From NCBI GenBank assembly GCA_963765205.1, contig CAVXVB010000007.1:128001-192000 (forward strand): a stretch of 64,000 bases of DNA, read 5' to 3'. A program made the position numbers. How positions within the stretch are numbered: the stretch's first letter is position 1; every line of letters starts with the position of its first letter. Of this stretch, positions 36,001 through 42,000 are shown in pieces. The DNA is from an uncultured Verrucomicrobiae bacterium (GTDB taxonomy: Bacteria > Verrucomicrobiota > Verrucomicrobiia > Opitutales > JABDGR01).

Positions 36001-39000
36001 GCTATGGAATTCAGACCAGCGGCTGGGCGAGCTCCTTGGGCGTTACCGACCAGGGTTGCACGATCAATGACACTGTGGCGCTGCCGCCGGGCTTGCTGGG
36101 CTTGCCCAGCGTCACCATCCTGGCCCCGATCAATAACACCCAATATGCCTTGCAGGCCGGCTCTTATGAATATGTGGCGGGGAATTCGACGGAGGTGGAC
36201 ACAGTCGAGAACGTCGAATATTCGACAGAAAATGGTTTTTTTGAGTATGTGCCGAGTGCCGGCAGTAATATCTCCATTGCGTATAATTTCACGGGAAACA
36301 CCTCGGATGGTTCACCTTTGATTGCCATGAATGGCACCGTCAACGGCATCAGCCTGGGCGTGGTGCCCACTGGCCTCAATGAGGCCAACACCACCGCGAC
36401 CGCGAAGGGGACCTTCAGCGTGTCCGAACCTGGCATTTATACGGTGACGGCGACGGACGCGAATGCCAATGGCGTGGATTCCCAATCGGTGGAGTTGGGC
36501 GTAAACATCAAAGCGGGCCCGCCGAGCGTGGTGATTGACACCCCGGCCGCCAATTCCACCTACACCTTGACGGGCAATTCCATTTCCGTGCCCTTGACGT
36601 TTACCGGCTTCAGCGAATACGGCGGCGTCACCGAATTGTCGGCGACGCTGGATGGCACTCCCATCTCCGTCTCTACAGGTGACTTGGGCAACAATACGGG
36701 TCCGGGCGGCAGCGGCACGTCCTTGGGCACGGGAACGCTGCCTTTGACCAGCGTCGGCCTCCATACCTTGGCCGTTACCGCGACGGACGACTTCGGTTCC
36801 ACGACCGCTTCGGAGCCCATCAATGTCATTCCGGGCAGTGTCATCAATCTCGGCGACGCCGCCGGCTTTTCCGTTTTGGTTTACAACGCCAGCAATAACT
36901 CGGACTCCGCCTATCAGTGCGGCTCGATTGGGGTGGTCAAGGGGAATTGGGCGCAAAGTGGCGGCCAGCAAACGAATGCCCAGGATGAGACGACCGTTTA
37001 TTTGAGCCCCGGCTATACCAGCAGCGGGCCTGCAGTGGAGACTACGGTCATTGATGGCACATTGCTGAATTCAGCGTGGACCGCGGCGGTGAATGAATCT
37101 GCCACGCTGGCGGCGATGACTCCCACCCAAACGTTTGGGAGCATTAACTTGAACAACTCGAATTTGACCATAACCGAAACGGTCGTTGGCACCTATGTGT
37201 TTGATTTTACCAATATCAGCCTGAATCACCCCGCGTCCCTGGTGTTGAATGCCCCCGCGGGAAGCACTGTGATCGTGAATATCTCCGGCTCGGTGCAGTT
37301 AAACGGCTCCTCCAATGGTGGCTGGATGGTGATTGGGGGCGGGCTGACGAGCACCAATGTCATCTATAACTTTACTGGCACCGGCAGCGTGCTGCACACG
37401 GCCGGCGGCGGCAACGGATCCGTTATCCAAGGCATTGTCCTGGCGCCCAATGGCCAGGTGCAATTGGATCCAGGCGAGGTGGAGGGTGAAGTCATCGCGA
37501 ACACGTTTTCGACTTCTTCGGGCACCCTCGTGCAGGCGCCTTGTCAATAATGTTGTCCTCGAGGCAAACCTTCCGCTAATCCTCCGGCCTCTTGCACCCC
37601 CCTGCCAATTACCGTTGACACTTGGGCCGGCACCGGGTTTGATATCCGGTTTTCCCCCGGCCCTTCCGGGCTGGTTCACATCCTCATCCACTGGTCATGG
37701 CCCTCAAAATCCGTCTGCAACGTCACGGCGCCAAAGGCGCGCCCATCTTCCGCCTGGTCGTCTGCGAGCACACCACCCGCCGCGACGGGCGGTTCATCGA
37801 GATTTTGGGCACCTACCACCCCTCGCCCACCGGCCAGGACACCAAGCACCCGCTGACCGTGCGCCTCGACCGCGTGGACCATTGGATGAAGGTCGGCGCC
37901 AAACCGTCGGACACCGTCTGGACATTGATCAAGAAAGCCCGCAAAGGCCTGGCGGAAGCGCAGGCGGCCGCGCCCGTGGAAGCCGTGGTGGCGGCGGTCG
38001 GTGTTTCGGCTACGACGTAACCCAGGATAGCCCAAGGATGAAGGATGAGGGATGAAGGATGAGAAGAACGGCGGCACGCAGGTTTGATGCTGCACAATTA
38101 TTTTTGCGTTAATCCCCGCTTTCCCGGGTTGGTTTTTTGGATTTCATCCTTCATCCTTTTCGTAGTCGTGTCCGCCCGTCTTTCCATTGACCTGCTGACC
38201 CTCTTCCCCGGCATGGTCGAGGGGTTTTTGCGCGAGAGCATCGTCGGGCGCGCGCAGGAACAGGGATTGATCGCCGTGCGGGTGCATAATTTGCGCGACT
38301 GGGCCACCGACAAGCACCACACCACGGACGACCGCCCGTTCGGCGGGGGCGCGGGCATGGTGCTCAAGCCGGAGCCGGTTGCCGCAGCCATCGAAGCCGT
38401 CGCCACGCCTGGCTGCATGGTCATTTACCTTTGCCCTGATGGCGAGATGCTGAGCACCGGCCTCGCGCGCGAATTGGCGGGTGCGGGGCACCTCGTCCTC
38501 ATCAGCGGCCATTACGAAGGCCTGGATCAGCGCGTGCGCGATTTGCTGGTCCATCGCGAAGTCTCCATCGGCGACTACGTTCTGACCAACGGCACCCTGC
38601 CCGCCGCGGTCCTGATTGACTGCGTGGCGCGCCAGGTGCCCGGCGTGCTCGGCGAGGAATTGTCCTTGACCCAGGATTCCTTTCACGGCAGTTTGCTCGG
38701 TTTCCCACAATACACGCGGCCTGTTGAGTTCCGTGGCCGGCGGGTGCCCGAGGTTTTGCTCTCTGGCAACCATGCCGCCATCGCCCAGTGGCGCCGCGAA
38801 CAACAAACCGAAAAAACCCGCCAGCGCCGCCCGGACCTGCACAACCAAATTAAGAAGTAAGATTTTAAGAAGTAAGATTTAAGAATTAAGAAATCAATCT
38901 CCGCCCCTTTCCTCTTTTATCTCCAGGTTTAGCCCTTCGTTCCCTTCATCTTTCTTCTTCGCCCTTCGCCCTTTCCCCCTTCACCCTATCGCCTCCTCTC

Positions 39001-42000
39001 TCTGACTTCTTAATTCTTCCTTCTTAATTCTTAATTTCCCATGAAACCCATCGTCATTGAAATCACCCGCGGGCAACTCCAGACCGGTCGCGACGTCTTT
39101 AAGGTCGGCGACGGCGTGCGCGTCCACACCAAAGTCAAGGAAGGCGACAAGGAGCGCGTCCAGATTTTCAGCGGCATCGTCATTGCGCGCAAGGGGCGCG
39201 GCGTGGCCGAGACCTTCACGGTGCGGCGCATTTCCTACGGTGAAGGCGTCGAGCGCGTCTTCCCGGTGCACGCCCCGACCATCGCCAAGATTGAAGTCGA
39301 GCGCGACGCCGTGACGCAAAAGGCCCGCCTCTATTATCTGCGCAAGCGCATTGGCAAGCAGGCGACGAGCGTCAAGGAACGCCGACTGCTTGAAGCCGCG
39401 GGCGCGATTGACGCGACGAGTTCGCCGGAAGCCGGCCTCGCCGCCGCCGAAGCCAAAGCCGAAGCGGCCGCCAAAGCGGAAGCCGAGGCCGCCGCGAAGG
39501 CGGAGGCCAAAGCCAAAAAGGCCAAGGAAGCGGAAGCCGCCGCAGTGAAGTAGCAGGGAGCAGGGAGGGCGGAAGAGATTCCTGAGTGCTGATTGCTGAA
39601 TTGAGGCAGTCGGCGTTTGTCCGCACTGTCTTCTCAAATCTGGAGCACCTCGACGATACGAACTTCTTTGACCGCGTGGTCGGTCCAGTAAGTGATGACC
39701 CAATCGTCCACCTGTAGATTTTGTAAAACACGTCCGGTATGGTCGGTGGTCGGGTAACCTCCAATCCGGTGCGGAGTCTCGGCTAGAGCATTTTCGATTT
39801 AGATAGACGCATATTGGGCATGACCAAAGAAGCCTTGGCAATGGGTGGAGGTGAAGGAGGCGAGGGCTGGAACCAAAGCGGTTTGGAGGTCCGTGAGGGT
39901 TCGTGCGGCGGCTTGCCGAAGATGGGCTTTGAGTTTGGCGAAGGCCTGTTCGATGGGGTTGAGATCGGGGCTATACGGCGGCAGATAGCGCACGCGGGCG
40001 CCGCGGGCGGCCAGCACCGCGGCGACGCTGGCCGTTTTGTGGGTGGCGAGGTTGTCGAGGATCACGGTGTCGCCCTCCCGCAATTCCGGGCCGAGCACTT
40101 GTTGGAGGTAGGCGGTGAACACGTCGGTGTCCACTGCGCCTTCGATCAGAAAAGGCGCAGTCACGGCGTCCACGCGCAACGCGGCGATAAAGGTGGAAGT
40201 GTGCCAGTGCCCGTGGGGCACGCGCCCGAGGCAACGCTGGCTGCGCGGGGCCCGCCCATACAGCCGCGCCATCTTGGTGTTCAAGCCGGTCTCGTCGATG
40301 AAGACCAACCGTCGGCTGTCCCAGCTGGGCTGATCCTGGCGCCACTGGTGCCGGGCCGCTTTAACGTCGGGTCGATCTTGCTCGGCGGCGCGCGTCGTTT
40401 TTTTTATAGCTCAAGCCCAGCCGCTCCAGCCGGTGCCACAGCGCGTTGAGGCCCAGCCGCACGCCGAGTTGCTCGCGGCAGCGCGTTTGCAGTTGCGCCA
40501 GCGTCAGGTCGGGCTGCGCCGCGATCCACGCCCGCACCTTGCGCTCATGCTCCGCCAGCCGGGAGCGGCGGCAGCCGCCGATTTGTTTCGGCGGCAGTGG
40601 CCCCGGCGGCGGTATTGGTTCCAGAAGCGTTCGGCGCTGCTGCGGCTGACCCCAAAACGGCGGCAGACCTCGCCCGTGCCTTCCCCGGCTTCGCGCGCCC
40701 GCACGATGCGCTGGCGCAAATCTTCCGAGAGTGGTTTCATGGTGGTGGCCTCCTTTTCCACCATTATACACCGCTTTCAGCAATACGTCTATTTAAATCG
40801 AAAATGCTCTAGCAAGCGGCAGGCCTTGGCCACGCGTTTCTGTTGTCGGCGTGGGAGCCGGAACACGTATTCGCTCGCGGCTTCCGACAAAGCGTAAGTG
40901 TAACCCTCCGGCATGACGCGGGCTAGTTTTCGGTTAAACCAACCCGCTGTTCAAACTCCTGCTGGGTCATCTTATGGCCCGTGTCCATGCCGCGCATCCG
41001 CCGGCTCATTTCTTGCCGCCACTCCTCGTTGCGCTCCCGGCCCAGTTGCAGCAAAAACGCAGACAGTTCCCGGCGCTCCGCCTCCGGGAGTTCGATCGCC
41101 TCTCGCTTCATTTCCGCGACGGACATGGCTGCCAGCATGGGCCACAATTCACCCTTTGACAAGCCATTCCTTCGCCGATGCGCATGGCAAACGGTTCCTG
41201 AAATAATCACCTATTAAAAAAGGCCGCGAGCCTTGGTGGTTGGGCTTGTGGCGGGCGGGTTTTTTGCCTAAACGTCACGGGCAGGCCGTCCCGCTCGCGC
41301 CCCCCCCATGCAAACCATCCCGAGCATCCCCGAGATGCAGTCGCTGGCGATTTCCCTGCGCACGCATGGCAAATTGATCGGCCTGGTGCCGACCATGGGC
41401 GCGCTGCACGAGGGCCACCTGCGCCTCATTGACGCCGCCAAGCAAAAGGCCGACGTCGTGATCGTTTCCATTTTTGTCAATCCGACGCAATTCGGCCCGA
41501 ACGAGGACTTCGCCAAATACCCGCGCACGCTCGAAGCCGACCTCGCCGCCTGCGAAAAGCGCGGCGCCGACATCGTTTTCGCCCCGAAAATGCCCGACAT
41601 CTACCCGCCCGGCTACTCGACTTACGTCAGCGAAGAACGCATCAGCAAAGGCCTCTGCGGCATCTCGCGCCCCGGCCATTTCCGCGGCGTCTGCACGGTC
41701 GTCAACCTTCTCTTCAACATCACCCGGCCCGACTTCGCCGTCTTCGGCCAGAAGGACGCCCAGCAGGTCGCCACGATCAAGAAAATGGTCGCCGACCTTT
41801 GGCTCCCCGTTGAGGTCGTCGTCGCCCCCACGCTGCGCGAGCCGGACGGCCTGGCCATGTCCTCGCGCAACCAATATCTCAGCGAGGAACAACGCGGGGA
41901 GGCGGCGAAAATCTACCGCGCCCTGCGCGAAGGCAAGCGCCTCGTGGACGAAGGCATCCGCTCGCCCGACCGCGTGCTTGCGGAAGTCACCCATGTGCTC

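Follow-up and report, generated by a model that had tools for sequence, protein, structure and literature searches.

In Escherichia coli, the trmD operon has the order rpsP-rimM-trmD-rplS, and a Firmicute form of it carries khpA (ylqC). The window analyzed here, a 64,000-nucleotide stretch of DNA from an uncultured Verrucomicrobiae bacterium (genome G000), resembles the E. coli operon in that rpsP, trmD, and rplS keep their order and are encoded on a single strand, but rimM is missing. The initial annotation held that this bacterium lacks RimM together with RimP, Era, and RsgA, which raises the question of whether four factors of 30 S ribosome assembly that most bacteria employ have truly been lost and, if so, when. 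The operon comprises the following features.

37697-38020, + strand: rpsP, ribosomal protein S16, 107 aa (Pfam PF00886 Ribosomal_S16, 74.5 bits; NCBIfam TIGR00002, 87 bits)
38021-38160, + strand: gene-free rpsP-trmD spacer, the slot of khpA and rimM in other bacteria
38084-38860, + strand: trmD, tRNA (m1G37) methyltransferase, longest ORF (Pfam PF01746 tRNA_m1G_MT, 207.5 bits, ORF residues 55-250)
39041-39553, + strand: rplS, ribosomal protein L19, 170 aa (Pfam PF01245 Ribosomal_L19, 133.4 bits, residues 6-113; NCBIfam TIGR01024, 128.3 bits)

The family-profile scores of S16, TrmD, and L19 exceed the curated cut-offs. Because the TrmD domain begins at residue 55 of the longest ORF, the real start of trmD is probably near 38160, ∼25-28 codons inside that ORF. 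Immediately after rpsP come trmD and rplS, leaving no space for rimM, and the spacer of ∼140 nt contained no separate + strand ORF of at least 40 aa. The S16 protein of G000 has a short Ala-rich C-terminal tail, and L19 ends in an Ala/Glu/Lys-rich tail of ∼55 aa.

The TrmD profile was matched in all 46 genomes of a phylum sample. Measured from where the S16 frame ends to where the TrmD alignment begins, the gap was 97-206 nt in nine of ten trmD loci of the same order and 213 nt in G000. At 13 loci of other classes, the rpsP-trmD gap held a 76-aa KhpA gene and never rimM. These classes retain khpA at the position seen in the Firmicute operon, whereas in the order of G000 khpA is also missing from the slot, and G000 has no khpA match anywhere. 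The long S16 tails of relatives were considered as remnants of a fused RimM or KhpA and rejected, the tails being acidic and of low complexity, with only the S16 Pfam domain matching. In Chlamydia trachomatis, rimM is presumably missing between rpsP and trmD as well.

The neighborhoods in which rimP and era would be expected were likewise occupied by other genes. The order in G000 is a 773-aa membrane ORF, nusA, infB, rbfA, a DHH-family gene, truB, and ribF, without rimP; the first ORF, which encodes a polytopic membrane protein and ends 57 nt upstream of nusA, matched neither Pfam nor NCBIfam. At 30 nusA loci of the phylum, none of the upstream ORFs matched the RimP profile (top E value, 0.37), and no small ORF common to several classes was found. 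Two ORFs of 175 and 134 aa farther upstream of nusA were rejected as cryptic RimP, having no Pfam match and being unlike RimP by eye; the 175-aa ORF appeared nucleotidyltransferase-like by eye. phoH is followed by a 7TM-HD gene, ybeY, and a DUF502 gene, without era. No hidden substitute was found at the ancestral gene positions (rpsP-trmD, upstream of nusA, and after ybeY).

Profile searches covered the whole of G000 (4.02 Mb, 12 contigs, 92.18% complete). They were directed at RimM as a ∼170-aa protein made of an N-terminal RimM β-barrel and a C-terminal PRC barrel, RimP as a ∼150-aa protein with RimP_N and RimP_C domains, Era as a ∼300-aa protein in which a KH_2 domain follows the Era-type G domain, and RsgA (YjeQ) as a circularly permuted GTPase carrying an OB fold and a zinc finger; none of these was recovered. 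PF01782 (RimM) gave no match at E ≤ 10, TIGR02273 (RimM) peaked at 14 bits (cut-off 66), and PRC_RimM (PF24986) reached 13.5 bits; the frames behind the latter two matches, a secreted 390-aa protein and a 77-aa SH3-like ORF, respectively, were rejected as RimM. RimP_N (PF02576) was not matched, and the top score for RimP_C (PF17384) was 12.6 bits, in a 1263-aa frame. An HMM built from eight planctomycete RimP sequences and run with --max on all 43,730 G000 frames of at least 50 aa yielded a top E value of 5.8. The planctomycete RimP copies carry an SPG(L/V)DR motif.

The top match to the Era model TIGR00436 was the Der gene at 69.2 bits (cut-off 116), with the alignment confined to the G domain, positions 3-164 of the 270 in the model. 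The Era-model matches were Der, Obg, MnmE, HflX, and YchF (NCBIfam) and IF2 (Pfam domains), and KH_2 was found in S3, PNPase-like, RNase Y-like, and NusA frames only. Single-sequence phmmer searches with Der G domains, too insensitive to recover all Era-like GTPases, matched only Der and MnmE. An Era match on contig C2 flagged “1 TAG” was rejected as a broken Era gene; the gene is Obg, which is intact and has this TAG as its stop codon. The RsgA model TIGR00157 peaked at 15.1 bits (cut-off 100) in a 961-aa frame, earlier annotated as UvrA. Above-cut-off matches to the RimM, RimP_N, and Era models were present in 10 of 10 bacterial control genomes, and to the RsgA model in 7 of 10.

Could the genes be present in the organism, within the ∼8% of the genome that is unassembled? 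The incompleteness of G000 and its 12 contigs allow for this, but the operon positions where the genes would be expected are assembled without a break and empty, and the same genes are lacking from relatives that are 95-100% complete or closed, single-contig genomes among them. This explanation is already close to refuted. The initial annotation was borne out in that all four genes are undetectable in G000, that rimM, rimP, and era are missing from the trmD, nusA, and phoH/ybeY neighborhoods, and that no assembly gap accounts for this.

The distribution of the absences was found to be much wider than first described. At a threshold of E ≤ 0.001, RimM was detected in 0 of 301 genomes across the phylum and in 1 of 151 Planctomycetota (a lone match on a 1,931-bp contig). 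Five named complete genomes of 4.4-10.8 Mb had no RimM either. A single RimP match, on a 1,950-bp contig beside unrelated genes, was obtained among the 301 phylum genomes, and RimP was found in 15 of 151 Planctomycetota. Era was present in 107 of the 301 phylum genomes. In the class it was present in 40 of 201 genomes, confined to few families (6/6, 25/27, 3/3). Among the 161 class genomes without Era are G000 itself, at 4.02 Mb, and listed relatives whose sizes range from 1.7 to 5.7 Mb; none of the 59 same-order genomes in the phylum sample (families f2-f7 and f9) contained it, and two families belonging to other classes lacked it as well. RsgA was detected in 71 of 201 phylum genomes and had a patchy distribution in the order, with 17 of 36 genomes matching, and with no match in nine other genomes of the family of G000.

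The earlier figures for the absence of Era from most of the class are close to those obtained here. For RimM and RimP, by contrast, the label “trait of Opitutales” is much too restrictive, and the absence of RsgA did not hold as a trait of the order. The description “free-living” goes beyond what sequence can show, its sole support being the 4-Mb genome size. Of the four factors, Era is essential in E. coli and the other three are dispensable in that organism. The phrase “thought indispensable” stands for Era, but not for RsgA, which is missing in 3 of 10 control genomes, nor for rimM and rimP, the knock-outs of which are viable in E. coli and other Gram-negatives; in the available portion of a review, rimM deletion, and rimP knock-out in Gram-negatives, are described as causing slow growth, not death (PMC9032327).

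RimM and/or RimP homologues might still be encoded, having diverged past recognition by Pfam and TIGRFAM models. True RimM proteins from Cloacimonadota MAGs (49.8 and 51.3 bits) and Krumholzibacteria (31.4 bits) all scored below the cut-off of 66, and planctomycete RimP proteins scored only 21.7-74.2 bits, which implies that both models are eroded by sequence divergence; detection of RimP in so few Planctomycetota could also reflect partial detectability rather than loss. Against this, RimM was without a match in 301 and 150 genomes, with one short-contig match set aside, and the clade-near RimP HMM was empty both in G000 and upstream of nusA at the 30 phylum loci. Furthermore, no ORF without assignment occupies the ancestral slots: between rpsP and trmD there are 97-213 nt in the order, and in other classes KhpA is the sole occupant. 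Conservation across classes was not seen for any ORF upstream of nusA. Such cryptic homologues are considered very unlikely.

We instead favor, with a probability of about 0.8, the interpretation that the four genes are truly gone from G000 and were lost stepwise, long before this genome existed. The losses are mostly ancient, lie within the Planctomycetes-Verrucomicrobia-Chlamydiae (PVC) group, and are neither specific to G000 nor a trait of Opitutales. The order and number of loss events were read from the rank labels of the sampled genomes. RimM would have disappeared no later than in the common ancestor that Verrucomicrobiota and Planctomycetota share, followed by RimP in the ancestor of Verrucomicrobiota, with loss or strong divergence in most Planctomycetota. 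Loss of Era would have occurred within the class, where few families retain it, two families of other classes also being without it, and RsgA would have disappeared late, in the family of G000 and patchily across the order.

How 30 S assembly could proceed after stepwise loss is suggested by the factors that were kept. As previously annotated, Der (434 bits), Obg (435 bits), HflX (424 bits), RbfA (58.8 bits), and YbeY (77 bits) were all recovered with NCBIfam models. Together with KsgA, retained according to the initial annotation, and self-assembly of rRNA and ribosomal proteins, these could support assembly. In model bacteria the four missing factors accelerate parallel assembly routes and check their quality, with no obligatory catalytic step, and a low demand for ribosome synthesis could make their loss tolerable. 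The assembly contains one 16 S 3′ end only, which fits such a low demand, although in a draft this may be a collapsed repeat. That 3′ end reads ...GGATCACCTCCTTTCT, the canonical sequence, and the RNA site of Era is therefore unchanged in G000. Given that Era is essential in E. coli, its loss may have required a compensating change.

Loss of Era elsewhere was dealt with in a 2023 review by Gruffaz and Smirnov. The available text of that review reports that Era has been lost in Chlamydia, Dependentiae, and the majority of Candidate Phyla Radiation (CPR) bacteria, ascribes this to “extremely genome-reduced groups,” and, in a figure legend, notes era in some Planctomycetota and not others; Verrucomicrobia are never mentioned in that text (PMC10582724). 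Era was lost from a PVC lineage in both cases, but the groups named there are genome-reduced, whereas in the class of G000 the loss extends to 161 of 201 genomes, among them one of 4.02 Mb. Outside extremely reduced genomes, loss of Era is regarded as next to impossible, a view that the review voices explicitly. The statement that Era is lost only in extremely genome-reduced groups is contradicted by the present data.

A 2025 survey of 30,000 genomes, as far as its accessible text goes, treats small sets of factors as a hallmark of CPR/Patescibacteria, in which hardly any rimM or rimP is present and the conservation of era is poor, as against rimM and rimP in >90% of non-CPR bacteria (Amikura et al. 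2025, PMC12641178). Absence or near absence of rimM and rimP is common to CPR and G000. However, CPR genomes are tiny and have also lost der, obgE, rbfA, and rRNA helices (PMC12641178), whereas the genomes considered here span 2-10 Mb, and G000 retains Der, Obg, and RbfA and has a canonical 16 S 3′ end. The terms Verrucomicrobia, Planctomycetes, and PVC do not occur in the main text of that survey. A full-text literature search returned no report of RimM or RimP loss in PVC bacteria or of Era loss in Verrucomicrobia.

Part of the lost functions could have been taken over by an unrelated PVC-specific protein, for which the small basic signature protein TIGR04137 is a candidate, or by altered ribosomal proteins or an essential gene of unknown function. 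The signature protein is encoded in G000 at C9:1019663-1019812 (83.8 bits, cut-off 50), and reportedly binds DNA and RNA unspecifically, both of which would favor a replacement of this kind. Described as a protein of unknown function in the available text of PMC3444138, it is reported there to be exclusive to Chlamydiae, Verrucomicrobia, Lentisphaerae, and Planctomycetes, the group in which RimM was not found, which was counted in its favor, as were the 100 essential proteins of unknown function in Verrucomicrobium spinosum (PMC12283558, available portion). This co-distribution is, however, a single event shared by kin and has almost no statistical weight. Moreover, the gene lies between metG and ftsH in G000, away from ribosomal and rRNA genes, and a 52-aa protein could not mimic a GTPase. 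Replacement by such a protein is regarded as improbable.

A broader proposal is that PVC bacteria, including free-living ones with large genomes, run a distinct late 30 S assembly pathway, in which a PVC-specific component, with TIGR04137 or an essential gene of unknown function as candidates, enabled the ancient loss of RimM, then RimP, then Era. This too we hold to be unlikely; were it true, the supposedly universal job of Era at the intact GAUCACCUCC of the 16 S 3′ end would be done by something undescribed.

An organism in which these questions might be approached is V. spinosum, for which a TraDIS essential-gene map and targeted gene deletion exist (PMC12283558, available portion). A “rimM” text match in that paper was rejected, being the surname Rimmer. 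The V. spinosum-E. coli ortholog table includes trmD, der, obgE, and nusA and omits era, rimM, rimP, and rsgA, but it proves nothing on the four genes because rbfA and ybeY are missing too.

The pattern is specific neither to G000 nor to the window and could be read from an ortholog database. Its significance is that bacteria of normal genome size do without these factors: RimM is missing from genomes of 2-10 Mb in two large phyla, and most genomes of the class lack Era, yet the rRNA site of Era is unchanged. Such lineages constitute a natural experiment on what these assembly factors are really needed for.

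Six-frame profile searches of the whole genome under study (G000, an Opitutales genome; 4,022,743 bases in 12 contigs, 92.18% complete) recovered none of the four factors RimM, RimP, Era, and RsgA. For RimM, PF01782 returned nothing at E ≤ 10 (cut-off of 23.5 bits), and the top scores of TIGR02273 and PRC_RimM (PF24986) were 14 and 13.5 bits against cut-offs of 66 and 27 bits, respectively. Zero matches were obtained with RimP_N (PF02576; cut-off of 22.7 bits), and RimP_C (PF17384) reached 12.6 bits against a cut-off of 26.3 bits. The RsgA model TIGR00157 scored 15.1 bits at best (cut-off of 100), and the Era model TIGR00436 (cut-off of 116) reached 69.2 bits over the G domain only (model positions 3-164 of 270). 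Each of the 10 bacterial control genomes gave matches above the cut-off with the RimM, RimP_N, and Era models, and seven of them, plus one archaeon, did so with the RsgA model.

Inspection of the frames recovered by the Era model identified Der (434 bits), Obg (435 bits), MnmE, HflX (424 bits), and YchF by NCBIfam, and IF2, which this model also touched, by its Pfam domains. One match with an internal TAG is not a broken Era but Obg, of which the TAG is the stop codon. KH_2 domains were confined to S3, PNPase-like, RNase Y-like, and NusA frames. Weak PRC matches, one in an SH3-like ORF of 77 aa and the other in a secreted protein of 390 aa, were rejected as RimM. The assembly factors RbfA, YbeY, Der, Obg, and HflX are kept.

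The G domain of MnmE (C7:80302-81894, + strand; locus L005) is interrupted by an insertion of ∼90 aa that contains repeats of RSQE/RSQK and a Pro-rich stretch. YihA/EngB/YsxC (TIGR03598), a GTPase of 50S assembly, was also not found in the whole genome, the best match being Der at 51.9 bits (cut-off of 124); since the model clears this cut-off in just 6 of 10 bacterial controls, the absence of YihA is less unusual.

Three genes, rpsP, trmD, and rplS, occupy positions 37697-39553 of the window on the + strand. They and their immediate neighbors are as follows:

35517-37550, + strand, directly 5′ of rpsP: secreted Thr/Ser/Gly-rich protein of 677 aa whose C-terminal domain is pAdhesive_15 (ice-binding-like adhesin)
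37697-38020, + strand: rpsP, 107 aa (Ribosomal_S16, 74.5 bits)
38084-38860, + strand: trmD ORF, with the methyltransferase domain from ORF residue 55
39041-39553, + strand: rplS, 170 aa, with the L19 domain at residues 6-113 and an Ala/Glu/Lys-rich tail after it
39799-40783, − strand, directly 3′ of rplS: IS630-like element with two ORFs, an HTH_33 ORF (140 aa) and, after it, a DDE_3 transposase ORF (169 aa, 108.6 bits), which may be two frames of a single transposase gene

Because the methyltransferase domain begins only at residue 55 of its ORF, the true trmD start probably lies near 38160. The resulting rpsP-trmD gap of ∼140 nt contains no separate ORF of at least 40 aa, and this usual place of rimM is too small to encode a RimM of ∼170 aa. 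An rpsP-trmD-rplS order without rimM is presumably also that of Chlamydia trachomatis.

The clusters in which rimP and era would be sought are likewise without them. On the minus strand of contig C5, nusA is preceded by a polytopic membrane ORF of 773 aa (no match in Pfam or NCBIfam) and followed by infB, rbfA, a DHH-family gene, truB, and ribF, with rimP absent; on C9, phoH is succeeded by a 7TM-HD gene, then by ybeY and a DUF502 gene, and era is absent. The PgpH-like 7TM-HD gene (L028:9121-11653 in the coordinates of the fetched locus) is read in two overlapping frames, 7TM at 9121-11043 and HD at 10847-11653, which may reflect a frameshift, a sequencing error, or a split gene. The 3′ end of the 16S rRNA on C5 (...AAGTCGTAACAAGGTAACCGTAGGGGAACCTGCGGTTGGATCACCTCCTTTCT), the only one of its kind in the assembly, has an unaltered helix-45 region and Era-bound GAUCACCUCC sequence. 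Profile searches and the gene order on C5, C7, and C9 thus bear out the absence of the four factors, operon contexts included, that the initial annotation had reported.

The loss of RimM extends far beyond the order. RimM was found in none of 301 genomes of the same phylum that were at least 90% complete and in none of five further genomes, namely one of Kiritimatiellota and the complete genomes (6.0-10.8 Mb) of the Planctomycetota Adhaeretor mobilis, Tundrisphaera sp., Planctomycetaceae SH139, and Stieleria magnilauensis. The single match among 151 sampled Planctomycetota has an IS-type gene as its neighbor on a contig of 1,931 bp and is therefore probably contamination. The one RimP_N match in the phylum (1/301), on a 1,950-bp contig with unrelated neighbors, probably has the same origin. 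RimP_N was matched in 15 of the 151 Planctomycetota (21.7-74.2 bits), and these proteins are judged from sequence to be real, the SPG(L/V)DR motif being present by eye. Planctomycete RimP (loci L156-L163) often bears a long, very basic Lys/Arg C-terminal tail (e.g. ...RRQKKRKRR) outside the Pfam domains. Outside these phyla, among 14 uncultured genomes whose completeness was not established, RimM was present in two of two Eisenbacteria MAGs (114 and 138 bits), in two of two Cloacimonadales MAGs (50 and 51 bits, below the cut-off), and at 31 bits in one Krumholzibacteria MAG; it was not found in four Omnitrophota, three Poribacteria, one Elusimicrobia, and one Auribacterota genome.

That the genes sit in an unassembled part of G000 has virtually no probability, as the initial annotation had also argued, since the operon contexts are contiguous and complete relatives are without the same genes.

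The ancestral positions were compared across the phylum, where trmD was present in 46 of 46 genomes and nusA in 45 of 46; flanking DNA was taken at 30 loci of each. At 9 of 10 same-order trmD loci, 97-206 nt separate the end of the S16 frame from the start of the TrmD alignment (213 nt in G000), and at the tenth S16 is not nearby. Thirteen of the 30 loci, all of other classes, have a wider gap (318-523 nt) that encodes a KhpA-type KH protein, usually of 76 aa (PF13083, 73.8 bits; example L183:1113-1340, among loci L183-L201), and none of these 13 gaps contains RimM. A KhpA HMM found no KhpA in G000 (best E of 4), and the slot lacks it in the same-order loci too, so that khpA counts as a fifth loss, likewise at the rpsP-trmD locus. 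In one family (f27), KhpA is longer (136-157 aa) and Era is missing, indicating that loss of KhpA and loss of Era are not strictly linked. In two same-order genomes of 1.7-1.8 Mb (L179:829-1395 and L180:2209-2856), S16 has an acidic tail of 100-125 aa whose Cys-rich end resembles, by eye, a CDGSH iron-sulfur motif (...C.C...KCDGSH); Pfam matched the S16 domain alone.

Upstream of nusA, a RimP HMM matched no ORF at the 30 loci (best E of 0.37), and no conserved ORF family was common beyond close relatives. From the gap sizes, the KhpA-only contents, and these non-conserved ORFs, it follows that the ancestral slots are empty or occupied by lineage-specific genes. With all filters off, a search of all 43,730 stop-to-stop frames of at least 50 aa in G000 with an HMM of eight planctomycete RimP sequences gave a best E of 5.8. 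It is therefore very unlikely that RimM and RimP homologues persist but have diverged past recognition: true RimM and RimP do score low in some phyla, but the ancestral slots are empty and the clade-near RimP HMM is negative in G000.

Era and RsgA are distributed differently. Era exceeded the cut-off in 107 of 301 genomes of the phylum sample, in none of 59 same-order genomes (families f2-f7 and f9), and in none of 47 and 23 genomes of two families labeled as same phylum (f20 and f27, respectively). The lone "same class" match in this sample (G300) is a 454-aa frame covering model positions 2-167 only and was read as Der. In the class-level sample, Era was found in 40 of 201 genomes, which reproduces its reported restriction to few families (f74 6/6, f80 25/27, f87 3/3, and some singletons). 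It was also present in Kiritimatiellota B12222, a Spyradenecus MAG, and one Verrucomicrobiota MAG, and was not found in a Victivallaceae MAG or a Kiritimatiellia MAG. The phylum sample yielded RsgA in 71 of 201 genomes, and 17 of 36 same-order genomes have it (f2 1/1, f3 6/17, f4 10/15, f5-f7 0/3); it was found in none of nine others of the family of G000 (50-96% complete). The loss of RsgA is thus recent and patchy, and its absence from G000 is a family trait, neither an assembly gap nor a trait of the order.

The initial observation is accordingly correct and no chance effect, and its interpretation as a trait of Opitutales is right in part. All four factors are absent, but the absence of RimM and RimP belongs to far larger clades, that of Era to most of the class, and that of RsgA to a clade smaller than the order.

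The absences, their breadth, and the empty slots, all observed directly, most likely reflect real, stepwise, and mostly ancient gene losses. As read from rank labels alone, which set both the order and the number of losses, RimM would have gone at or before the Verrucomicrobiota/Planctomycetota split; RimP would have gone in the Verrucomicrobiota ancestor and been lost or have diverged in most Planctomycetota; Era would have gone within the class and in some further lineages; and RsgA would have gone late. 30S assembly would then proceed without the four factors, with RbfA, YbeY, Der, Obg, and HflX still present. In model organisms, the lost factors speed and proof-read parallel assembly routes and perform no obligatory step. 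Of the four, Era alone merits being called "thought indispensable": according to PMC9032327, deletion of rimM and knock-out of rimP in Gram-negatives result in slow growth, although S. pneumoniae does not survive deletion of rimP.

A non-homologous substitute specific to the Planctomycetes-Verrucomicrobia-Chlamydiae (PVC) group is unlikely. The small basic "PVC signature protein" TIGR04137, described in PMC3444138 as restricted to PVC phyla and of unknown function, is encoded in G000 between metG and ftsH (C9:1019663-1019812, + strand; L208:1501-1659; 52 aa, 83.8 bits, cut-off of 50), and its distribution parallels the loss of RimM. A shared distribution amounts, however, to one event among kin, and nothing ties TIGR04137 to ribosomes, which leaves it a candidate. 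The gene does not lie beside an rRNA operon, despite the model name Chlam_Ver_rRNA.

Gene loss, the favored reading, has precedents. Ribosome-biogenesis factors have been reported as lost across whole lineages in CPR bacteria (PMC12641178), in Chlamydia and Dependentiae (PMC10582724), and in Mollicutes (PMC4014445). In contrast to these, the loss here occurs without genome reduction and is a new form of a known type of event. Full-text searches outside the subscription journals found no statement of these PVC losses. A 2025 survey gives rimM and rimP in >90% of non-CPR bacteria and names no PVC phylum in its main text; its supplement covers 45 Verrucomicrobiota and 40 Planctomycetota genomes, with no per-genome gene matrix among the listed tables (PMC12641178). 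The result is a negative one, derivable from databases and in no way particular to the window, and the mechanism of assembly is inferred. A recent Era review limits escape from the Era requirement to "extremely genome-reduced groups", places Planctomycetota among clades of mixed presence, and never names Verrucomicrobia (PMC10582724). The present finding contradicts that review and directs attention to tractable organisms for study.
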